Below, piece by piece: positions 2,853 through 61,590 of a stretch of 64,000 nucleotides of DNA. Numbering within the stretch: the first letter of the stretch is position 1; every line of letters starts with the position of its first letter. Source of the stretch: Clostridia bacterium (GTDB taxonomy: Bacteria; Bacillota; Clostridia; TANB77; UBA1234); the NCBI GenBank assembly GCA_017521465.1, contig JAFXCN010000020.1:5797-69796 (forward strand). The letters are read 5' to 3'. The translations under genes were made by a program, and so were the position numbers. Under the pieces are notes generated by a model that had not been told where the DNA came from, did not search any database, and worked only from the letters and a program-made list of their open reading frames with translations.

Positions 2853-3668
2853 ATGCAAGAAATATTAAAAAAAGCAACAGAATCTGCTAGATACATAAGA
2901 AGTTTAATTCCTAATATGCCAGAAATAGCAGTAATATTAGGATCAGGATTAGGAAATTTAGTAAATGAAATTAGAGATAAAATAGAAATACCATATGCAC
3001 AAATACCAAATTTTAAAGTATCGGGAGTAAGTGGACATGGAAACAAATTAATATATGGTACTGTTTATGGGAAGCCAGTTATAGCAATGCAAGGTAGATA
3101 TCATTTTTACGAAGGATATACAATGCAAGAAGTAACCTTTCCAATAAAAGTATTTGCTTTGCTTGGGGTATCAAAATTGATAGTATCAACAGCGAGTGGA
3201 GCTGTTAACAAAAAATTTAGAACAGGAGATTTGATGCTTATAACAGACCATATAAAAATGTATGGAGATTCACCGTTGAGAGGTGAAAATATAGAAGAAT
3301 TTGGAATAAGATTCCCTGATATGAGTTCTGCATATTCAAAAAGACTAATAGAAGTAGCTAAAGAAGTAGGTAAAAAATTAAAAATTGATTTAGAAGAAGG
3401 TGTATTTGCTTTCATGCCTGGACCACAATATGAAACACCTGCTGAAATAAAAATGCTAGACATATTAGGAGCTGACGCTGTAAGCATGTCAACGGTTCCA
3501 GAAGTAATTAGTGCTGCTCATTCAGGAATAGAAGTTTTAGGAATATCATGCATAACGAATACTACAGGTTCCGGTGAGAAGCTTTCGCATGCAGAAGTAG
3601 TAGAAGCAGCAAATGCCGCTAGTGAAAAATTTGTAGACTTAGTTATTGAAGTAATAAATAAGATATAG
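2853..3668 (+). CDS. punA: purine nucleoside phosphorylase (PNP-I family)
   Basis: PNP/MTAP family motifs (GSGLG, SMSTVPEV). Start placed at ATG 2853 behind RBS AAAGGTGGA; the track's earlier GTG start lies inside the RBS. Confidence 0.85.
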   Translation: MQEILKKATESARYIRSLIPNMPEIAVILGSGLGNLVNEIRDKIEIPYAQIPNFKVSGVSGHGNKLIYGTVYGKPVIAMQGRYHFYEGYTMQEVTFPIKVFALLGVSKLIVSTASGAVNKKFRTGDLMLITDHIKMYGDSPLRGENIEEFGIRFPDMSSAYSKRLIEVAKEVGKKLKIDLEEGVFAFMPGPQYETPAEIKMLDILGADAVSMSTVPEVISAAHSGIEVLGISCITNTTGSGEKLSHAEVVEAANAASEKFVDLVIEVINKI

Positions 3669-4449: not shown

Positions 4450-4923
4450 ATGATTATTTTTTTTATATTCGTATTAATCTTGTTAATAATATTATTTGCA
4501 AAGATAAAAATAAAAATATTTTTTACAATAAAAAATTTTGAATATTATTACTGTGTAGATATATTTGTATATGACTTGAGAATAATAAAGATAGATAAAA
4601 GTGAAATAGAAAAATATGCAAAAAAAATAAAACCCAAAATCAAAAATCAAAATAAAATTCAAGTGTCAAAAATAATAAGAAAAATAAAAATAGAAGAATT
4701 AAATATAGATTTAAAAATAGGTTTATTAGGAATATTCCCAACAACATTTTCAATTCCGATAATATCAACAATCATTGCAAGCATACTTCCATTATTAAAA
4801 ACAGGAAAAGACAAAATTAAATATAGCATACAACCAATATATAACAAATTAGCACTAAATGCGAAAATAGCAGGAACAATAACTTTTCGAATTATTGATG
4901 CAGTCATTTTACGTCAGACATAA
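4450..4923 (+). CDS. YtfI-like (DUF2953-type) sporulation membrane protein
   Basis: Hydrophobic N-terminus. Its position directly upstream of ytfJ mirrors the B. subtilis ytfI-ytfJ pair. Confidence 0.4.
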   Translation: MIIFFIFVLILLIILFAKIKIKIFFTIKNFEYYYCVDIFVYDLRIIKIDKSEIEKYAKKIKPKIKNQNKIQVSKIIRKIKIEELNIDLKIGLLGIFPTTFSIPIISTIIASILPLLKTGKDKIKYSIQPIYNKLALNAKIAGTITFRIIDAVILRQT

Positions 4924-5170
4924 ACGTCCGTCCAGTGAACACTTTGTGTCGGACAGAAAAATTCAGTCAGCGCACACTTTGTGTCGGACAGAAAAATTCA
5001 GTCAGTGAACATTTGTGTCGGACAGAAAAATTCAGCCAGCGCACACTTTGCGTCGGACAGAAAAATTCAGCCAGCGCACACTTTGCGTCGGACAGAAAAA
5101 TTCAGCCAGCGCACACTTTGCGTCGGACAGAAAAATTCAGTCAGTGAACATTTGTGTCGGACAGAAACTG
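4924..5170. repeat. tandem array of about 7 copies of a 34-35 bp unit (core GTCGGACAGAAAAATTCAG..CACACTTTG)
   Basis: Measured period is 35 bp (e.g. GCACAC at 5041, 5076, 5111). Two unit variants are present (CAGCGCACACTTTG and CAGTGAACATTTG). There are no unique spacers. Confidence 0.9.
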
Positions 5171-5298
5171 ATTAAAAGAATAAAGAATAGTGAATAAATA
5201 AAAATTTATTCCTCAATATTTAGTCATTATTCTTTAAATTGTGCATAGCACAATTTATTTTGCACATACTAATTTAAAAATAATTTAGGAGGTAGAGT

Positions 5299-5814
5299 AT
5301 GAACGAACATCCAATTGAAGGGCTTATGAATACTGCTATGAATAATTTGAAAGATATGATTGATGTAGATACAGTTGTTGGTGATGCGATAGATTGTGGT
5401 AATAATACGACGATAATTCCTATATCCAAAGTTTGTTTTGGTTTTGCTGCTGGTGGTAGTGAATTTAATAGTGAAACATTAGAACAATATAGTAAAGAAG
5501 GTATTGATGAAGATATCTCATACAAACTTCCTTTTGGAGGAGGTAGTGGAGCAGGAGTTAATATTGCACCAATTGGTTTTCTTGTTGTTTCTGATTCTGG
5601 TGTCAAAATGTTACCGGTAAATCATTGTTCTGCATTAGATAAGATTCTAGATTATGTTCCAGATGTTCTGAATAAATTAATGGATATGTGCAGTAAAGAA
5701 AAGACATATAGATATGAAATTTATGAAGATGTAGGTAATGATTGTACTTGTGGATGTAATGAGGGAGAAGAATGTACTTGTGACAAAGAAAAAGAAGATG
5801 AGGAAGAAGATTAA
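5299..5814 (+). CDS. ytfJ: sporulation protein YtfJ (GerW family) with Cys-rich acidic C-terminal extension
   Basis: Conserved GerW/YtfJ core (FGGGSGAGVNIAPIGFLVV). The C-terminus CTCGCNEGEECTCDKEKEDEEED is an atypical addition. Confidence 0.8.
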   Translation: MNEHPIEGLMNTAMNNLKDMIDVDTVVGDAIDCGNNTTIIPISKVCFGFAAGGSEFNSETLEQYSKEGIDEDISYKLPFGGGSGAGVNIAPIGFLVVSDSGVKMLPVNHCSALDKILDYVPDVLNKLMDMCSKEKTYRYEIYEDVGNDCTCGCNEGEECTCDKEKEDEEED

Positions 5815-10479: not shown

Positions 10480-10959
10480 ATGGATAAAATAAAAATTGGG
10501 AAATTAAATCTATTAGATATAGTAATAATTGTTTTATTAATATTATGTGTTGCTTTTGCGATATTCAAATTCATGCCAAAGAACAATACTATAAGTGGAG
10601 AAGAACAAAGTAATACTTTTTCGTACACAATTAGAGTTGAAGGCATATCAAGCACTTCTTCAGATATGATAAAAGTTGGAGATAATATTTATGACAAAGT
10701 TACAAATACTCAAATAGGAACAATCACTGATTTGAAAATAGAACCGGCATTAGGAATAATCGAAGATCTTGATGGTAAATATATAAAGGCTGAAATGCCT
10801 AATAAAATTGATGTTGAGATAACTGCTAAAACTGAGGGAAAAGTACAAAATGGTGAATATATTGCAAATGGACTTATAAGAATATTAGTCGGTCAAACAA
10901 AAGAAGTAAAAACAAAATACTGGATGGCAAGCGGATTTGTAACCGAAGTGAATAGTTAA
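10480..10959 (+). CDS. DUF4330-like membrane-anchored protein (paralog)
   Basis: Start at ATG 10480 behind RBS TAGGAGG. The track's 10399 start overlaps the previous gene and is unlikely. Confidence 0.4.
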   Translation: MDKIKIGKLNLLDIVIIVLLILCVAFAIFKFMPKNNTISGEEQSNTFSYTIRVEGISSTSSDMIKVGDNIYDKVTNTQIGTITDLKIEPALGIIEDLDGKYIKAEMPNKIDVEITAKTEGKVQNGEYIANGLIRILVGQTKEVKTKYWMASGFVTEVNS

Positions 10960-10967
10960 TAGTGATT

Positions 10968-15116: not shown

Positions 15117-15190
15117 TGGAGGCGCCAATCAGATTTGAACTGATGATCAGGCTTTTGCAGAGCCGTGCCTTACCACTTGGCCATGGCGCC
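15117..15190 (-). tRNA. tRNA-Cys (anticodon GCA)
   Basis: Minus-strand sequence GGCGCCATGGCCAAGTGGTAAGGCACGGCTCTGCAAAAGCCTGATCATCAGTTCAAATCTGATTGGCGCCTCCA folds as a cloverleaf. Anticodon loop is CTGCAAA; T-loop is TTCAAAT; 3' end is CCA. Confidence 0.85.
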
Positions 15191-37071: not shown

Positions 37072-37419
37072 TTATTTCCAAACATTATATACCGTTTTAC
37101 CATCTTTGTTTTTTATTAAGTTGTAAACACCATCAAGTGTGTTTACATTAATAGAATTTTCATCATTAAAAATTTCAATTGTATGATTTTGATTTAATCC
37201 AAATGGATTTTGACCATCTGGGAAATATGATTTTGTTTCAACAATAATTTTATCATCATAAATATAATAAGTTTTGTCAGGACCATCTACATGTGACATA
37301 TTGTTTGTTAATATTAAATTATAATCTTCTGGTATGGTATAAGTTAATTTCCAAATTATAAAACTTAATATTATAAGTAGTACTATAACAGATATTGTTA
37401 TTATTATTTTCTTTTTCAT
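37072..37419 (-). CDS. hypothetical membrane-anchored protein
   Basis: N-terminal TM followed by a 90-aa beta-rich domain. Confidence 0.4.
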   Translation of the reverse strand: MKKKIIITISVIVLLIILSFIIWKLTYTIPEDYNLILTNNMSHVDGPDKTYYIYDDKIIVETKSYFPDGQNPFGLNQNHTIEIFNDENSINVNTLDGVYNLIKNKDGKTVYNVWK

Positions 37420-37453
37420 ATATTATGTAACCTTTCTGAAATTAAAATATTAT

Positions 37454-37792
37454 TTATAAATCCGTATTTTTATTGTTATTTTTTTTACTTTTAATATATA
37501 TTATTATTTTTGCACAAATAGTTATAAGTAGCACGATTACAGAAAGTATTGCACTACCGAAGCTGAATAAAACTTCACCCAAATATGATAATCCAGGCAT
37601 AAAGCCATAGCCAGGCAAGTTCTCATAATATTGCCATAATGTTATAGAAATTATAATAGAAAAAGTTTCTAATAAAAATACTTTTACCCAGCTTTTCGTT
37701 TCTTTCTTTTTTATAGCTTTTACTAATAAAACTATTTGTCCTATAAATATTACTAAATATAATATTAATACAAGTAAAGTTTCAATAGACAT
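37454..37792 (-). CDS. hypothetical 3-TM membrane protein
   Basis: Hydrophobic segments; no motif recognised. Confidence 0.35.
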   Translation of the reverse strand: MSIETLLVLILYLVIFIGQIVLLVKAIKKKETKSWVKVFLLETFSIIISITLWQYYENLPGYGFMPGLSYLGEVLFSFGSAILSVIVLLITICAKIIIYIKSKKNNNKNTDL

Positions 37793-37894
37793 TTTCTCTC
37801 CTCCGATAATTTTGAATTCATTACTCTATAAATAGTATACAATAAAATTATTTTCTCAACAATAAAAAAGACCGCAAAATGCGGTCGATTTATA

Positions 37895-38578
37895 TTAATC
37901 ACTACTTGACTTGAGTCTAAGTACATGCAAGAAAATATTAAGAAAGTCCAGATAAATTTCGAGTGCATAAAAGATTGCACATACATTTTCATTTTCGTTG
38001 AGCTTATAAGAGTTAGAATGATTCTTAATCTTATAAATATCGTATGCAGTAACGGCAACAAAAATTAGGATTGCAACTGCAGATACGACAAAGGAATAAA
38101 GACTATTATTTACGAAAATATCAACTATCAATGCAATAAGCAAGCCAATCAGAAGAATGGTCAAAATGCTACCCCAGGAGGAAAGATCCTTTTTGGTAAC
38201 AAAACCGTAAATTGCTGCAACAGCAAAGACTCCAGCTGCGATAAAGAATGCAGAATAAATATCAGGCAGTTCGTAAGCGCGGAAAATTATCGAAAGAACT
38301 ATACCTTCAAGTGCTGTATAGGTTATAAAGTAAAAATATGCAACGGGAGATGTAATACGACTAATAGTAAAACAAATAATGAATGTATATACAACAAGTC
38401 CAATGTTAAGTCCTATAAGCAAACCATTTGAAAGTACTGCGCCAGAATTAGCAATGCTATATGCAGTAATGCCAGAAATCAAAAGGCCCACAAACATCCA
38501 AAGAAATACTTTAGTAAACAATGAGCTAGATTCCGATTCATGTCGGACTTGATGGCTGTAAGGGCGGTAGTTTGTCAT
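37895..38578 (-). CDS. Bax-inhibitor-1/YccA-family membrane protein
   Basis: 7-TM protein. GC-rich hairpin terminator GACCGCATTTTGCGGTC at 37871-37895. Confidence 0.75.
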   Translation of the reverse strand: MTNYRPYSHQVRHESESSSLFTKVFLWMFVGLLISGITAYSIANSGAVLSNGLLIGLNIGLVVYTFIICFTISRITSPVAYFYFITYTALEGIVLSIIFRAYELPDIYSAFFIAAGVFAVAAIYGFVTKKDLSSWGSILTILLIGLLIALIVDIFVNNSLYSFVVSAVAILIFVAVTAYDIYKIKNHSNSYKLNENENVCAIFYALEIYLDFLNIFLHVLRLKSSSD

Positions 38579-38744
38579 CTTTGCTCCTCCTTTTTTGTTT
38601 CGTGTTCAACTTTAATTATGTCAAGTGAAATCTAAGGGCCATTCAATAGAATCATCCTTCTTTCTATTTAAATTTCGATTGAATTATATCAAATATCATG
38701 TTTTATGTCAAATTATAGAACTTATCTCCGAGCAAAAATGTCCG

Positions 38745-38860
38745 CTGGCAGGATTTTTTCGTCGGACACAAAACACATGATTTTGGACAATTTATGTCCG
38801 ACGTAAAGTATTCGCTGGGCGGACGTTTGTGTCCGACGAAAAGTGCTTGCCTCGTTTTGT
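38745..38860. repeat. GTCGGACA-family repeat copies in mixed orientation forming a 19-bp inverted repeat
   Basis: TTTTTCGTCGGACACAAAA (38766-38784) and TTTGTGTCCGACGAAAAGT (38836-38854) are inverted. Internal copy ATGTCCGACGTAAAGTATTCGCTGGGCGG. Confidence 0.8.
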
Positions 38861-38893
38861 GCAAAATGTTATCATTATTGTATGGAGGTTTCT

Positions 38894-39913
38894 ATGATTA
38901 GTTATGATGATTTGCCAGAGATTTTAGTTAATTATATGAATTATAATGCTAACTTGAATAGGTCTAAAAATTCAATTAATGAGTATCGTTATGATCTTAC
39001 TAGATTTCTGAAGTATATTAAAGTTTTGAAATTAAAAATAAAGACGAATTCTTTGGATGAGGTTGATATTAATGATGTTGACGAGAAGCTTTTGAATAAA
39101 GTTACTTTGAATGATTTGTATGCGTACATGACTTATTTGCGTGATGAATGTGGTAATTCTGCTACTTCTCGTGCTCGTAAGGTTGCTAGCATTAAAGGTT
39201 TTTTTAGATATTTGCATGTTAAGGCTAAACTTATTGATGATAATCCAGCTAAAGAATTAGAAAGTCCTAAAGTTGGTAAACGTTTGCCGAAGTATTTATC
39301 GCTTACAGAAAGTCAAGAATTGCTTGATAAAGCCAAGTCTGGTGATATTCATATTAGAAGTAAACGCGGAAAATCAGAACAAGATCTTAGTGAGAATCAA
39401 AAGAAGTTATCGGCTCGTGATTTTGCTATGATTACTTTATTTTTAAATTGTGGCATGCGTCTTTCAGAACTTGTTGGAATTAATTTAGAACATATTAAAT
39501 TTGATGAATGCAATTTGACTGTTATAGGAAAAGGAAATAAAGAAAGAACAGTCTACTTAAATAAAGCTTGTATAAATGCTCTTAATGAATATTTAAAAGT
39601 TAGACCTGATATTGATGGCAAAGATAAAAACGCTCTTTTCTTGAGTGAAAGAAAAAAACGTATAAGCAATAGAATGGTTCAAACTACTATTTCGGAATAT
39701 CTTAAAGCGGTTGGCTTAAGTGGTTATTCAACACATAAATTAAGACATACTGCGGCAACGCTTATGTATCAAAATGGTGTTGATGTAAGAGCGCTTCAAG
39801 AAATATTAGGACATGAAAGTATTGGTACAACTGAAATATATACACATGTAGATAATTATCAAATAAGACAAGCGATAGAAAACAATCCGCTTGCTGATTA
39901 TAAAGCAAAATAA
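38894..39913 (+). CDS. tyrosine recombinase, XerD/XerC-like
   Basis: C-terminal catalytic motifs HKLRHTAAT...LGHESIGTTEIYTH. ATG 38894 behind GGAGG. Hairpin terminator 39914-39942. Confidence 0.85.
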   Translation: MISYDDLPEILVNYMNYNANLNRSKNSINEYRYDLTRFLKYIKVLKLKIKTNSLDEVDINDVDEKLLNKVTLNDLYAYMTYLRDECGNSATSRARKVASIKGFFRYLHVKAKLIDDNPAKELESPKVGKRLPKYLSLTESQELLDKAKSGDIHIRSKRGKSEQDLSENQKKLSARDFAMITLFLNCGMRLSELVGINLEHIKFDECNLTVIGKGNKERTVYLNKACINALNEYLKVRPDIDGKDKNALFLSERKKRISNRMVQTTISEYLKAVGLSGYSTHKLRHTAATLMYQNGVDVRALQEILGHESIGTTEIYTHVDNYQIRQAIENNPLADYKAK

Positions 39914-39973
39914 AACTACGGAGAAAACTCCGTAGTTTTTTATACCAAAGAAAAGTTAAATGTATACAAATAT

Positions 39974-40246
39974 TTATACTGTAGGAATTAGTAGCTCCTG
40001 TCCTATGTAAATATCTGAATTGTTTAAATTATTTATTTTCTTTATTTCAAAAATATTTTCATTTATATTTCCATCAAGCGATTTTGCAATGCTCCAAAGT
40101 GTATCTCCATTAGAAACTATAACTTTTTCATATGTTGGTTCTTGATATGAAAAAACTCCTCCGAAAATACAATTAAATATAGAAAACATTAATATAAATA
40201 TTATTGACATTGATATTATAAATCTTGGCATACTCTTTATTCTCAT
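39974..40246 (-). CDS. LysM-domain membrane protein
   Basis: Signal-anchor plus LysM motif VSNGDTLWSIAKSL...IYIGQELLIP. Confidence 0.6.
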   Translation of the reverse strand: MRIKSMPRFIISMSIIFILMFSIFNCIFGGVFSYQEPTYEKVIVSNGDTLWSIAKSLDGNINENIFEIKKINNLNNSDIYIGQELLIPTV

Positions 40247-41971: not shown

Positions 41972-42772
41972 TTACTTTCCTCTACAGCCATTAACCCTGA
42001 GCTGGTAGTATATTGCATTCTTGGAAACTCCAAAGTATCGTGCCAGTTCTGTAACATTCCGCTGACCATTATGCCACATATCACAAAGAGCTTTAATCTC
42101 ATTTTCACGCAAACGCTCGCCAGTCTTGGGCCAGTCTTCTTTACTGGACATTTTGGATTGAGAAATCGGTTCGGCACTAGGCCGAGAAGTATTGCCATCT
42201 GTGGTAACAGTAGCCATTTGCTTCATGGATGCACGCTTCTGCTTCTTCTCTTCAGATGAACTGCACTCGGGAATTTTAGATGCCCAACGGCATACAGTTG
42301 CAATACTGACTTCAAATTCAGTAGCAATGTCAGCAATAGGCAGACAGTCGTTCCACATCTGTACGAACCGTTCCAGCTTGCCGGCAAGCTTGTCAGGAAT
42401 AAGCTGTTTAGCACCGATGCGCTTGAACGCTTTCCTCCTGCCATATCCATTCTTATAAGCATAGTTATATACGGAATTCTTCGTGACACCAAGTTGATCG
42501 GCCATCGTCTCGGCAGAGACACCCTCATTCCAGAGCTTCTCGAACAGCTCTTTGTCGATGCGCTTCCTGGTGGACTTTTTGGGCGCTTCAGAAGCCGCTT
42601 CTTCACGAATTTCAACTACCGTATTATCCTTTTTAGAAACATTCACATTAGGTTCAGCAGTGGTAGCATCATCACGATACACCCTGAAAACTACTTCGGT
42701 CGGGCTTGCTTGGATGAAATCAACCTTGATGCCTTCTTCGGCAACAAACCGGAAAGAGAACTCTTTCATTTT
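41972..42772 (-). CDS. GC-rich foreign gene: protein with three helix-turn-helix-like repeats
   Basis: Coding GC about 50% against a 28-30% background. Three copies of a pattern like LW(N/H)xG..V..(I/M)A..(F/L)GV(T/S)KN(S/A)(V/I)Y. Own terminator AGAGCAGAGCAATCTGCTCT followed by T7 at 41944-41968 (minus). Confidence 0.5.
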   Translation of the reverse strand, partial: KMKEFSFRFVAEEGIKVDFIQASPTEVVFRVYRDDATTAEPNVNVSKKDNTVVEIREEAASEAPKKSTRKRIDKELFEKLWNEGVSAETMADQLGVTKNSVYNYAYKNGYGRRKAFKRIGAKQLIPDKLAGKLERFVQMWNDCLPIADIATEFEVSIATVCRWASKIPECSSSEEKKQKRASMKQMATVTTDGNTSRPSAEPISQSKMSSKEDWPKTGERLRENEIKALCDMWHNGQRNVTELARYFGVSKNAIYYQLRVNGCRGK

Positions 42773-45700: not shown

Positions 45701-45707
45701 TTATAAA

Positions 45708-46046
45708 AAGAGCAAATCTATAAGCCGGGTTCTGTATTTGATAATCATTTATCTAGGATATACATTGCTGTATACCTCAAGCCGCCTTCTTCAAGAAGTA
45801 ATAGCGGGCAACTTAAACTTCTTCCATGGCGTTGCTCCGAGTGGGGTTTACATAGCCAATATGTCTCCATATTGCTGGTAGGCTCTTACCCTGCCTTTCC
45901 ATCCTTACCTTATTACTAAGGCGGTATATTTCTGTTGCACTATCCTTAGAGTTACCTCCACCAGCCGTTAGCTGGCACCCTGCCCTGTGGAGCCCGGACT
46001 TTCCTCATATGCTATAAATAGCATCCGCGATTATCTGACTTACTCC
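45708..46046 (-). ncRNA. rnpB: RNase P RNA
   Basis: Minus strand contains GAGGAAAGTCCGGGCTCCACAGGGCAGGGTGCCAGCTAACGGCTGG and the 3' P4 strand ACAGAACCCGGCTTA. Promoter TTGACT-17-TATAAT at about 46060-46090 (minus). Ends are approximate. Confidence 0.85.
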
Positions 46047-46153
46047 ATAGATATTATACTTTATGTTGCCTAAAAAGTCAATTTGTGTCCACACTTTTCA
46101 CTATTCATTATTCACTAACCAAAAAAGCCGGGGAAATTCCCCCGGCTTTTTGG

Positions 46154-51291: not shown

Positions 51292-51387
51292 AAAATCACC
51301 CTCCTAAATATTATACAGTTATTATAATATAACAATAAAGGAAATGCAACGAATAGTGAAAAGTGAAGAGTGAAGAGTAAATGAAAA

Positions 51388-57375: not shown

Positions 57376-57754
57376 CTGAAAAATCATTCCTTTCTTTATA
57401 TAAATTATTATCTTGTTACTAATTCTTGTTCTCAAACCAAAATTGTTTATTCTCACTAAAACTCATCTTGCTACAACTTCTAACAAAAATATTTAGCTCG
57501 CTACGTGATACGCAAGCGTTTAAAACTGCGCTCGCTACATTTTTGAAGAATTTGTATACTACGCTTCGTAAATCGTTCGAACAAAAAATTTTGTTTTGAG
57601 AATATGTTCCTAATACACCAATAAATTGATTATCATTCCAAATTACTGTAACGCAGTTCGCTAAATCATAGTGAATAACGAATAACTAATAGTGAATAGT
57701 AATGGCTATTCGGATAATTATTAACTATTCACTCTTCACCATTCACTATTCACT

Positions 57755-58010
57755 ATAAAAAATGTCCCTGACATTTTTTATACAATGCCAGGGACGAAAA
57801 TTCTAATTATTTCCGCGGTACCACCCGTGTTCTAATCACAAAGATTAGCTCTCAAAATAGATTAACGCTCTAATCACGTGATAACTCCAATAGCGAAATT
57901 CATTTATATACAGAGCTTAGAGAAACTTTCAGTCGGTGATTTCTCCTTCCTACAAGATACATATAAACTACTAAAAATACCTTCATCGTCACCAATGGAT
58001 ATATATTACT
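57755..58010 (-). ncRNA. T-box riboswitch leader (Phe specifier UUC) for pheST
   Basis: Minus strand: T-box motif AACACGGGTGGTACCGCGG (plus-strand 57813-57831). Terminator GTCCCTG..CAGGGAC followed by T-run (57760-57797). Candidate specifier GAAAGUUUCUC. Confidence 0.7.
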
Positions 58011-58054
58011 CCTTTTTTTGAGAAAAGTCAAGGTTATGTCCGTATAAAAATATA

Positions 58055-58175
58055 CTCTGTGTGAACTTTTGTGTCCGACGTAAAGTGTACGCTGGGTGAA
58101 TTTTTCTGTCGGACATAAATCTTTCGCTAGGAATCATTTTTCAACGGACACAAAAAAGTCGGCATATGGCCGACT
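58055..58175. repeat. GTCGGACA-family repeat copies (fourth locus)
   Basis: TTTTGTGTCCGACGTAAAGTGTACGCTGGGTGAATTTTTCTGTCGGACATAAA. Near-identical to the locus-3 internal copy and to the reverse complement of the array-1 unit. Confidence 0.8.
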
Positions 58176-58182
58176 TAAGTAA

Positions 58183-58413
58183 TTAGTCTGTGTATTCATC
58201 AGTACGTTTTATTACATGAATAACATTTTCATTTTTCATAGGACAATCTGTGCTAACAACGCAGTCTAAGCAATCATCAGGTGTATGGTAGCATTTCTTC
58301 TCTTCTTGTTTGTTTTTATTAGGCTTAATACGTTCAATAAGCATTTGAATGCCAGGATTGTAATAAAGCATAATTAGTAAAATGATAACAAGAAGGATAA
58401 TAGCAACGTCCAC
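58183..58413 (-). CDS. hypothetical small membrane protein
   Basis: 76 aa with N-terminal TM and 4 Cys. Confidence 0.3.
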   Translation of the reverse strand: MDVAIILLVIILLIMLYYNPGIQMLIERIKPNKNKQEEKKCYHTPDDCLDCVVSTDCPMKNENVIHVIKRTDEYTD

Positions 58414-58611
58414 AAAAACACCTCCAGTTTATAGTGTTTTTTATGAGTGAAAAAGTATGATTATTATATCACAAAAGGCTTGAAAATCAAGAAAAACTTA
58501 TCGACAAAAAAGCACGAAATTTACTTTTCACTATTCACTATTAGCTATTCACTTTTGCTTGCAAAAAAAAGGGAGGCCCCGGATTTTACTCCGGGGACCT
58601 CCGCCCTATTT

Positions 58612-59115
58612 TTAAGGTGCCATAGGGGGCACCACCGCGACCAGCCCCTTGTACTGGTCCTGGTATTCCGCCAGTTTGGTAGCCGTGTTGCGCTGCCAGC
58701 GGGCGCGTTCCTTGGTTTTCTTTGCCGTGTTTTCGACGTCAGCGGCAAAGGCCTCTACCTCGTTGCAAAGGAGCTCGAACGCTTCTGCGACGCCAACCTT
58801 GCCCAGGGCGGCAGTAGCAACCGCAGCCTCAGCTTCTTCGCTGTCCAGGAACTTGACGAAATCTTCAATTTCCTTTTCAAGCTTGAGCCACGGCTTTTTC
58901 TTCAGTTGCGCCTCTTTGAGCTTTTCGCCGATGCCCTTGAAAAGGTCAGTGCAGTTGGAGATAATCGCCGGTACAGAGCCTACCAGGGCAAAGGCGGCAA
59001 CAATGAATCCCCAGAAATTCTGGGTCTGGGTCTGCACGTTGGTGAAAACCTTCAGGGCCATGATGGCCAGAACGAAAGTGATAATGGGGTTCAGAACAGA
59101 AAGGGTCTTCTTCAT
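58612..59115 (-). CDS. GC-rich hypothetical membrane protein
   Basis: 167-aa ORF in a segment of about 58% GC. Terminator GGGAGGTCCCCGGAGTAAAATCCGGGGCCTCCC followed by T8 at 58560-58600 (minus). Confidence 0.4.
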   Translation of the reverse strand: MKKTLSVLNPIITFVLAIMALKVFTNVQTQTQNFWGFIVAAFALVGSVPAIISNCTDLFKGIGEKLKEAQLKKKPWLKLEKEIEDFVKFLDSEEAEAAVATAALGKVGVAEAFELLCNEVEAFAADVENTAKKTKERARWQRNTATKLAEYQDQYKGLVAVVPPMAP

Positions 59116-59402
59116 GATGTTTCCTCCTTGTATCGGATGTTATTTTGGTTTACCATGCGTGCCGGGATAGGGCCCTCACAATTTCACGCGTAATCGTGAG
59201 GCAATAAATAAGTATAACATAAATATGTCGAACAGGCGCGAAGAGCGCCTGGAAATTTGGATAAAAGTTCTAAGACAATATTATTTTACCATATTTATGT
59301 AAATTAGTCAATGTTTTTCAATATTATGTATAGTATTTGTAAAATTTTATATATTTAAATAATAAAAAGCCGCCGGTATTCTACCGGCGGTCATGGAATC
59401 GA

Positions 59403-60282: not shown

Positions 60283-61590
60283 TTAACAATGCAATATTTT
60301 TTCTATAAAATCGGTACCCTCCCAAGAAGTTATTATAGTTTTTATATTTAATTCTTTCTCCAGTTCTTTTAATTCCATATCGTCTAAGAAAATATCTTCA
60401 TCATCTTTTAGCATACTACTAGACAATATTAGTTTCTCGCCTAATTCTTTACCTTTTAGTTGCTTTACTATATCTCCACCAGTCAATAGCCCTGTAACAG
60501 TTATTAATGGGCCAAAGAATGTATTTTCTATTGAATAAACGTTTATTTTTAAACCTTCTACTTTTTTTTCAAGTCTTGTAACTAATCTTTTTATAAAATT
60601 ATATGCAAGTTTTCCTGTAACTATAGAAACGGTTTTATTTATTTTTGTTTCTTCTATTTTTTTAATATTTAGGTCAAATTCATGTTTGAATTTTGCAAGC
60701 ATACCAATACCATCTTCGAGTTGCGGAAAATCTTCATAACTTTTATAACTTGGTATTCTTCTATTTGCTAATACATAGAATTCATCTGCTACGAATACTA
60801 CATTAGAGCCAACTTTTGCTTTGAATTTCTTTTGCCATGCTTCAACCTGGTCAATTACAACAGCTGCTGTATTCTTATTAAATGTAGTAAGTGGATATAA
60901 TCCTTCTCTATATTTTGTAAGTCCGACAGGAACGATTGCTATGCATTGCAAATATGGAAAGAATTTAGATAAGTCTTTTATTGTTTTATCTAGTATTTTT
61001 CCATCATTTATTCCAGGACATAGAACTATTTGTGCATTTACGCTTATTCCATGGTCAACTAAATATTTGATGTAATCCATTATTTTATCTGCATTATTAT
61101 TATTAAGCATCATTTTTCTAGTTTCACCATCAGTTGCGTGAACAGATATATTTATAGGGCTTAGATGATATTTAATTATTCTATCTAGATCTTTATATCC
61201 AGAATTAGTCAATGTAACATAGTTACCTGTTATAAAAGATAATCTAAAATCGTCATCTTTAAATACTAATGTATCTCTTACATTTTTAGGTAATTGATCC
61301 ATAAAGCAAAAGATGCACTTATTTGCGCAACTTCTAGGTTTTTCGATTAATTGCTCTTCAAAAACTATTCCCAAATCTTCATTATCTTCTTTTTCAATTT
61401 CTAAATCCCACTCTTCACCATTTGTTTTTTCAATTGTTACAACAATTTCTTCGTCAAATATTTGGAATTTATAGTCTAGAATATCTTTTATTTCTTCACC
61501 ATTTACAGATAACAAGAAATCTCCTGCTTCAATTTCCATTTCTTCAGCGATACTACCGGGTAGAACATTTTTTATTGGTATTTTTTTCAT
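60283..61590 (-). CDS. PDZ-domain / DUF512 protein with radical-SAM-like Cys cluster
   Basis: N-terminal PDZ-like region (VLPGSIAEEMEIEAGDFLLSVNG). Cys cluster CANKCIFC (Cx3Cx2C). Typical neighbour of der in Clostridia. Confidence 0.6.
   Translation of the reverse strand: MKKIPIKNVLPGSIAEEMEIEAGDFLLSVNGEEIKDILDYKFQIFDEEIVVTIEKTNGEEWDLEIEKEDNEDLGIVFEEQLIEKPRSCANKCIFCFMDQLPKNVRDTLVFKDDDFRLSFITGNYVTLTNSGYKDLDRIIKYHLSPINISVHATDGETRKMMLNNNNADKIMDYIKYLVDHGISVNAQIVLCPGINDGKILDKTIKDLSKFFPYLQCIAIVPVGLTKYREGLYPLTTFNKNTAAVVIDQVEAWQKKFKAKVGSNVVFVADEFYVLANRRIPSYKSYEDFPQLEDGIGMLAKFKHEFDLNIKKIEETKINKTVSIVTGKLAYNFIKRLVTRLEKKVEGLKINVYSIENTFFGPLITVTGLLTGGDIVKQLKGKELGEKLILSSSMLKDDEDIFLDDMELKELEKELNIKTIITSWEGTDFIEKILHC

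Follow-up and report, generated by a model that had tools for sequence, protein, structure and literature searches.

The 64,000-nucleotide stretch of contig JAFXCN010000020.1 analysed here (hereafter the window) belongs to the metagenome-assembled genome of an uncultured rumen/gut Clostridia bacterium, of which ~ 75 kb were covered by the present survey. The element under study, array 1, is a tandem array of 35-bp units lying in the gap between an open reading frame (ORF) labelled ytfI-like and the gene ytfJ. The features of this locus are as follows, lengths of proteins being given in amino acids (aa).

4450 to 4923, + strand: ytfI-like ORF, 157 aa, no family match
4913 to 5168, + strand: array 1, seven units of 34-35 bp and a terminal core, delimited by Tandem Repeats Finder (TRF), a hidden Markov model (HMM) of the unit and an in-register reading
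5243 to 5271, + strand: forespore-type promoter-like motif of ytfJ, GCATA-N17-CATACTA, downstream of array 1, read by eye
5299 to 5814, + strand: ytfJ, Pfam Spore_YtfJ (GerW family), 5e-28

The original prediction, made from the letters of the sequence alone, had placed the array between two sporulation genes. This holds for ytfJ, while the label of the upstream gene is purely positional since its protein has no match in Pfam or NCBIfam.

On TRF the repeat is found at 4932-5167 with a period of 35 bp, 6.8 copies, 92% matches and a score of 374, in agreement with the ~ 7 units of 35 bp first proposed. Read in register, and with 92% identity between units, it begins with a degenerate unit, GTCAGACATAAACGTCCGTCCAGTGAACACTTTGT (4913-4947), which is followed by six further units of 35 or 34 bp starting at 4948, 4983 (34 bp), 5017, 5052, 5087 and 5122 (34 bp), and by a terminal partial core at 5156-5168. 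The array reported at 4924-5170 is hence present but its start had been set too late, the real one lying 11 bp earlier and overlapping the stop codon of the ytfI-like ORF (TAA, 4921-4923), which falls within the first, degenerate unit. Two unit variants had been described as alternating; the order found for the six units is instead A, B', C, C, C, B'. Eight TGTCYGAC cores are carried by array 1, all of them on the bottom strand. The recurrence of the motif is far beyond chance: the window holds 23 matches to GTCGGACAGAAAA with at most two mismatches for 0.88 expected, a number reached by none of 100 shuffles, and 19 occurrences of TGTCYGAC for 1.5 expected, 18 of which are inside arrays. Furthermore, the same array recurs in at least seven independent assemblies obtained with different assemblers and is therefore not an assembly artefact.

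A scan of the window with the unit HMM returned exactly four loci and none elsewhere, so that the three other loci with related units which had been announced were recovered. They are listed below together with the neighbouring features to which the text refers.

33711 to 33912, + strand: array 2, five 35-bp units GTCGGACACAAAAGTTTCACCAYGACACACTTTCT starting at 33718, 33753, 33788, 33823 and 33858, with degenerate ends
36000 to 40000, no strand: replication terminus, from the GC-skew sign change and the gene-strand flip
38734 to 38872, - strand: array 3, decayed, with three to four units in minus orientation
38894 to 39913, + strand: Xer-family tyrosine recombinase, 339 aa, directly downstream of array 3
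41972 to 42769, - strand: candidate binding protein, 265 aa, three tandem resolvase-/Cbp-like helix-turn-helix (HTH) modules, 45.7% GC
58047 to 58150, - strand: array 4, three units in minus orientation

The two arrays scored by TRF consist of head-to-tail 35-bp units in 6.8 and 5.5 copies. All four arrays are intergenic, they follow a stop codon (array 1) or a terminator (array 4), and they lie just upstream of promoter -35 elements; at every locus the units read in the same sense as the gene downstream. Array 2 is located between a divergent VanW gene (32938-33669, - strand) and a 118-aa ORF (34018-34374, + strand), ~ 45 bp upstream of a conserved promoter. Array 3, which holds an inverted core pair (CGTCGGACAyAAA-N17-TTTtGTGTCCGACG), lies at the GC-skew switch between the -35 elements, read by eye, of the divergent Bax1-I and xerC-like promoters, and array 4 separates the intrinsic terminator belonging to a 76-aa gene (58183-58413, - strand) from the -35 element of the pheS leader promoter, also read by eye. 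Since arrays 2 to 4 are flanked by unrelated housekeeping genes, the sporulation-gene setting of array 1 appears incidental. The arrays have a GC content of 39-47%, against ~ 31% over the window as a whole. Units of one array share 92-95% identity and those of different arrays 58-84%, which indicates local homogenisation.

When 25 distinct units are aligned, their consensus is GTCgGACA.AAAa.Ttc..cCAg.a.AcAcTTT.t. Strong conservation is limited to the core TTTnnGTCSGACAnAAA, a quasi-palindrome of 17 bp with a free base at its centre. All array cores read TGTCYGAC on one strand. After the core comes a variable 18-bp spacer in which the motif occurs a second time in weaker form (CGnACAC-TTT), and TRF picks this up as sub-periods of 16 and 19 bp within the unit. 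The arrays open with ..ACTTTnn and close with a core, hence taking the form core-(spacer-core)n. Arrays 3 and 4 contain cores that are flipped together with their central base, resulting in perfect 9-13-bp inverted pairs, and such pairs form 9-13-bp stems at these two arrays and in L028, a contig from a related genome.

Single 35-nt units display no stable fold (-0.8 to -3.6 kcal/mol, z from -0.7 to +1.1), and whole arrays fold modestly, through core-to-core pairing; for array 2 the fold is better than that of shuffles, with z of -3.4 on the + strand and -5.6 on the - strand. In the 25-unit alignment the positions flanking the core exhibit no covariation preserving pairing, Rfam gives no match for the arrays either at the gathering threshold or at E <= 1, and neither promoters nor terminators were found inside the arrays. 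We read these results, together with the intergenic position of all four arrays, as those of a double-stranded DNA element whose core would be a putative protein-recognition site. The conserved core is thus probably recognised by a DNA-binding protein rather than acting as an RNA or hairpin signal, which is plausible because only the quasi-palindromic core is conserved and because it resembles a resolvase-type HTH half-site.

Several other identities were considered for the unit and discarded. An Rfam RNA is ruled out by the search just described, and a REP-type hairpin in each unit by the unfolded state of single units. A Xer recombination site does not fit, as the 17-bp palindrome has a 1-bp centre and not an overlap region of 6-8 bp. 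Compared by eye with consensus sequences, the core is one base off the Spo0A box (TGTCGGA against TGTCGAA) with nothing else in its favour, and none of the SpoIIID, CodY, Rex and CsrA-GGA motifs fits all units.

The number of units at array 1 varies between independent assemblies whose flanks are 99.96-100% identical, as expected of a variable number of tandem repeats (VNTR) locus. Seven units are present in the window and in L005, L006 and L007 (here and below, L numbers designate the other contigs compared), six in L004 and L008, where one C unit is missing, and three in L009, where the block C-C-C-B' is missing. All these alleles come from short-read metagenome assemblies, and several short-read contigs end inside arrays (L029-L031, L041). 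However, losses of internal blocks (C, or CCCB') should not be fabricated by a collapsed k=141 de Bruijn graph, and on this ground we accept the VNTR behaviour. The family displays what defines a minisatellite or VNTR, namely head-to-tail units of 10-100 bp, several intergenic loci and copy-number polymorphism. By exact protein matches the window falls in the genome of MBR4110879.1 (locus tags IKK43_) and recurs in several ruminant-gut metagenome assemblies. As for arrays 2 and 4, they are invariant among five and three assemblies respectively.

More distant genomes were compared at the site of array 1. In L028 (GCA_017623075.1), whose DNA is 91-93% identical, an array occupies the same site with other unit variants and an inverted final unit. 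In a sister lineage (L032-L036) the site is empty: the distance from the ytfI-like stop codon to the ytfJ start codon is 53 bp instead of 375 bp in the window, and the ytfI-like ORF is 155 aa long with the C-terminus ..FRIIDLLLA, whereas in the window the protein ends in ..FRIIDAVILRQT (..LRQT), its last codons and stop being supplied by the first repeat unit. Given the empty site and the different C-terminus of the sister lineage, array 1 is an insertion and expansion that rewrote the 3' end of the ytfI-like gene. The motif GCATA-N17-CATACTA upstream of ytfJ was read against the sigmaF/sigmaG consensus, and its -10-like CATACTA is kept in the empty-site lineage; the consequences of array 1 for ytfI and ytfJ look incidental.

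Array 3 has orthologues made of different units in L042/L043 and in L044/L045, and its left boundary is constant across lineages, ~ 45 bp upstream of the Xer-family gene. In two further relatives whose XerC is 67-73% identical (L050 and L052) neither units nor cores were found in 21 kb each, and the L050 gap that is homologous to the array 2 region measures 152 bp and is empty. Beyond this clade, scans for two cores spaced by 32-38 bp gave nothing but chance matches or tandem repeats of no relation in 185,579 GTDB species genomes, in JGI metagenomes or in IMG/VR, blastn of the array against plasmid and phage collections gave no match, and neither did the translated array ORF against 5.8 billion proteins, a search for miscalled arrays elsewhere. 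The literature searched on GTCGGACA and on Clostridial intergenic repeat families contained nothing relevant. The family is young, lineage-restricted and previously undescribed in the collections and literature searched.

Some JGI contigs from unrelated organisms (L018 at 4991-5113, L025 at 3271-3400, L019, L023 and L027) carry other tandem repeats with units beginning with GTCGGACA(N)AAA, such as six copies of a 37-bp unit in L018 and eight copies of a 13-bp unit in L025, a contig of 30% GC. As these were selected by the search pattern itself, they may mean nothing.

A second family of short repeats is present in the window. Tandem AATAGTG heptamers occur there 17 times for 1.3 expected, in runs at 5179-5198, 10951-10964, 33686-33706, 46092-46112, 51352-51372, 57688-57757, 58522-58549 and 61409-61422, which are nearly all intergenic and mostly oriented with the replichore; at 57688-57757 two runs build a long inverted repeat upstream of pheS. 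Two of the runs abut 35-bp arrays, but L028 has its array without heptamers, and for this reason a link was rejected and the heptamers are treated as a separate family.

What is observed is a tandem structure at several loci, an insertion, alleles of different length, local homogenisation and a narrow distribution. On this basis we consider array 1 to be, with good though not full confidence, one locus of a young, lineage-restricted, dispersed family of non-coding minisatellites, analogous to MIRU or BOX-B, with a length driven by slippage and a core probably recognised by a protein. The minisatellite-like behaviour foreseen by the original prediction is borne out by the alleles of 7, 6 and 3 units, by the turnover of units between lineages and by the high identity within arrays. 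Array 1 inserted and replaced the last codons of the ytfI-like gene, giving a new stop codon while the ytfJ promoter was kept. For the other steps we infer the following course from the sequences compared. The length of array 1 would change by slipped-strand mispairing or unequal recombination, probably helped by adjacent quasi-palindromic cores pairing with each other. The conserved core may be recognised by a DNA-binding protein, for which the triple-HTH protein encoded at 41972-42769 is the best candidate, and the element would persist, as a neutral passenger, because the gaps upstream of promoters tolerate it.

The kind of phenomenon is already known from species-restricted repeats of the MIRU, BOX, STAR and REP types, and the arrays are an ordinary kind of bacterial "junk" satellite; it is the specific family which is undescribed. 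Like the mycobacterial interspersed repetitive units (MIRU), it consists of tandem units of tens of bp at several intergenic loci with a copy number varying between strains, and the overlap of a unit with the stop codon of the upstream gene is shared as well. In contrast, there is no sequence relationship, the phylum is another one, the unit here is of 35 bp with a quasi-palindromic core, and the arrays are found in divergent promoter regions too, whereas MIRU lie mainly inside operons. Pneumococcal BOX and Staphylococcus aureus STAR elements are GC-richer short intergenic repeats of AT-rich Firmicutes, species-restricted and with variable internal tandem modules. The present family resembles them (boxB modules in the case of BOX) by its GC-rich intergenic repeats, its variable number of tandem modules and its narrow distribution, but it has no boxA/boxC end modules, its single units are not stem-loops and no sequence similarity exists. 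With REP/BIME and REPIN elements it shares a size of ~ 35 bp, an extragenic location, multiple copies and, at some loci, inverted core pairs; it differs from them by the dominance of the head-to-tail arrangement, by a unit which is not a hairpin and by the absence of RAYT from the gene-annotated parts.

Some observations weigh against the minisatellite interpretation. Copy number and distribution are based on the ~ 75 kb of genome covered, the three alleles of array 1 come from short-read metagenome assemblies, and arrays 2 and 4 show no copy-number variation. No transposase or RAYT was found in the gene-annotated parts of these ~ 75 kb, the portion of the window from 15 to 31 kb being without Pfam annotation. 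Array 3 persists beside xerC in three lineages and the orientation of the units is polar around the terminus, either of which could mean a host function. Finally, recognition of the core by a protein is a prediction from its conservation and likeness to known sites.

The alternative that survives best gives the triple-HTH protein the leading role. The arrays would be functional binding platforms for the triple-HTH protein, each module reading a subsite of the TGTCYGAC type and the protein coating the array, and the coated arrays might insulate or organise the DNA upstream of promoters, by analogy with Cbp1/Cbp2 on CRISPR repeats or SopB on sopC. We regard it as possible but unlikely. The gene of the protein, IKK43_04435, is an insertion between pta and ackA some 3 kb from array 3 and possesses a promoter and terminators of its own. 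Its GC content exceeds that of its neighbours (30-36%) to reach the range of the arrays, both being GC-rich in a genome of ~ 31%. The protein contains three 3-helix modules on flexible or disordered linkers of 25 and 56 residues, and the sub-periods of the unit, 16 and 19 bp, would be within reach of these linkers. Only 15 homologues were found among 5.8 billion proteins, with two to four modules each; the full-length architecture is represented by three clusters among 1.84 billion representatives, and ~ 930 proteins share the tandem module. Some homologues carry peptide repeats of the SETITKNEEVV type in the linker.

By both sequence and fold the best solved relative of the protein is 2LVS, which is Cbp2, a tandem-HTH protein binding CRISPR DNA repeats (PMC3597662). 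In the Cbp1/Cbp2 and sopC/SopB arrays regularly spaced repeats are bound by a protein with two to three tandem HTH modules (PMC3597662, PMC3315313, PMC10883916). The present case differs from Cbp1/Cbp2 by having no spacers, cas genes or crRNA and by being bacterial and not crenarchaeal, the similarity is weak, and binding is a prediction. Module 1 matches Pfam HTH_7 and aligns to the DNA-binding domain of gamma-delta resolvase (E 0.005). Since Tn3 res site I is TGTCTGATAATTTATAAATTATCAGACA (PMC4499144), the half-site of the resolvase HTH is TGTCYGA, and the core TGTCYGAC agrees with the outer half-site of res site I at 7 of 8 positions, followed likewise by an A/T-rich tract. However, the arrays hold a 9-bp overlapping palindrome every 35 bp where Tn3/gamma-delta res has 12-bp half-sites inverted around a crossover, and no serine-recombinase catalytic domain is encoded nearby.

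Gene and arrays are confined to the same narrow clade. Each of the three lineages with arrays that were sampled at this locus has the triple-HTH gene; L050 lacks it at pta-ackA and L052 lacks it throughout 21 kb, both relatives being array-less. Nevertheless, the evidence is correlative throughout, and a co-occurrence of three lineages versus two could reflect a single phylogenetic branch. Moreover, the similarities to resolvase and Cbp2 are weak (E from 1e-3 to 1e-2), the residues of the recognition helix are unlike those of resolvase, the resolvase comparison was picked after the HTH_7 match had been seen, and no core is found near the promoter of the HTH gene itself.

Taken further, arrays and triple-HTH protein would form one horizontally acquired DNA-protein system, a bacterial and CRISPR-independent counterpart of Cbp1/Cbp2 with resolvase-type modules, whose protein would coat the TGTCYGAC cores and whose local nucleoprotein blocks upstream of promoters around the terminus would insulate transcription or pause replication forks. 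We hold this extension to be rather speculative and a little less likely still. If the link with the triple-HTH protein is real, the arrays would provide a self-contained and recently acquired pair of repeat array and binding protein, as well as a tractable model of how tandem-HTH proteins read spaced repeats outside CRISPR and of the role of arrays near the terminus.

A different function, which we find improbable, is that of terminus-specific polar elements, either a fork-pausing array of the Ter/RTP type or a system resembling matS or KOPS. GC skew is ~ +0.2 up to ~ 30 kb, crosses zero at 38-40 kb, where cumulative skew peaks, and is ~ -0.15 thereafter, and genes are on the + strand up to 36058 and on the - strand from 37072; the window therefore spans the replication terminus. 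The arrays lie at about -32, -3, +2 and +21 kb from the gene-strand flip, their units in + orientation on the left replichore and in - orientation on the right one (+,+ / -,-). Opposed polarity by replichore is the pattern of Ter or KOPS-like elements. In addition, three lineages have array 3 next to the Xer-family gene, where the skew switches. The encoded protein scores below the NCBIfam cut-offs of both XerC and XerD, its close homologues being named XerC, and xerC genes are mostly near dif sites (Kono et al., PMC3025954).

With four arrays, however, unit orientation cannot be separated at all from the direction of the genes, and the pattern would arise by chance about once in eight. Array 1 is absent in the sister lineage. 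Relatives also have xerC at the skew switch (L052 displays the same skew flip at xerC) but no arrays, so that termination in the clade can do without them. No gene resembling those of RTP or Tus was found, the small neighbouring ORFs, where an RTP-like protein had been sought, being membrane-protein-like.

Two further observations concern the terminus region. Of all sequences in the window the one most like dif is ATTTTCTTTTTCATATATTATGTAACCT at 37406-37433, intergenic and near the skew switch, which agrees with B. subtilis dif at 20 of 28 positions; its XerD arm is good and its XerC arm poor. The AT-rich terminus gap of the window (36930-37030) contains a conserved non-coding block, ..AAAAnCGATTyTAGG..ATyCTCGTGCGTyG.., which recurs in L052 (9730-9830) and L053; it is common to relatives with 67% identical XerC, in which it stands directly upstream of xerC, and it may be the dif region of the clade or a small RNA.

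Still less credence is given to a role of the arrays as RNA, whether as a repeated element of the 3' or 5' untranslated region (UTR) or as a protein-sponge small RNA, like the REP/BOX stem-loops, which stabilise mRNA, or the GGA repeats of CsrB. The sense orientation of the units to the downstream gene at all four loci would suit it, array 1 would be in the ytfI 3' UTR, and the folding of array 2 points the same way. But single units are unstructured, the fold of the arrays is the core pairing of a tandem quasi-palindrome, Rfam has no match, and arrays 2 and 3 are upstream of promoters in divergent regions with no obvious promoter of their own. Furthermore, the core occurs in either orientation, with the flipping of its central base at arrays 3 and 4, as expected for recognition of double-stranded DNA.

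We attach practically no weight to the arrays being a degenerate CRISPR locus, iterons of a plasmid or an artefact of assembly: 35 bp is a typical length for CRISPR repeats and short-read contigs often break at the arrays, but the units are directly head-to-tail without spacers, as the original prediction had rightly seen, no cas genes lie near any array in the gene-annotated contigs, the real CRISPR repeat of the clade is unrelated to the 35-bp unit, plasmid and phage collections are without match, and the recurrence of the array in independent assemblies speaks against an artefact. That CRISPR array is located at 4020-5441 of L045, with the repeat GTTATAGTTCCTTATTAATTTCTGATATGATATAAT and cas2, in the terminus region; the window has none there. 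In plasmid iterons the directly repeated units measure about 17-22 bp and adjoin a rep gene or an origin. The iteron family evoked by the original prediction is not supported, as neither a replication gene nor an origin is nearby, the window is at the terminus and the 35-bp period is not iteron-like.

The window contains some other features unrelated to the arrays.

15117 to 15190, - strand: tRNA-Cys
34494 to 34686, + strand: T-box leader upstream of the Asp/Asn-tRNA ligase gene
45705 to 46046, - strand: RNase P RNA

Also, an island of 54% GC is found at 58560-59200 in this genome of 31% GC, with a 167-aa ORF (58612-59115, - strand) which uses GC-rich codons, has a strong ribosome-binding site and is accompanied by a structured 5' leader and a strong terminator. 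Neither Pfam nor Rfam gives a match, PHROG gives only a faint one to a holin, and since long ORFs are open on both strands of the island its coding status is uncertain.

As a dispersed minisatellite, the family to which array 1 belongs represents a clean documented case of birth, turnover and copy-number variation of such an element in an uncultured lineage of gut Clostridia. The array could serve as a VNTR marker for strain typing, and it carries a warning for annotators, as the repeat has rewritten the 3' end of a gene and breaks short-read assemblies.

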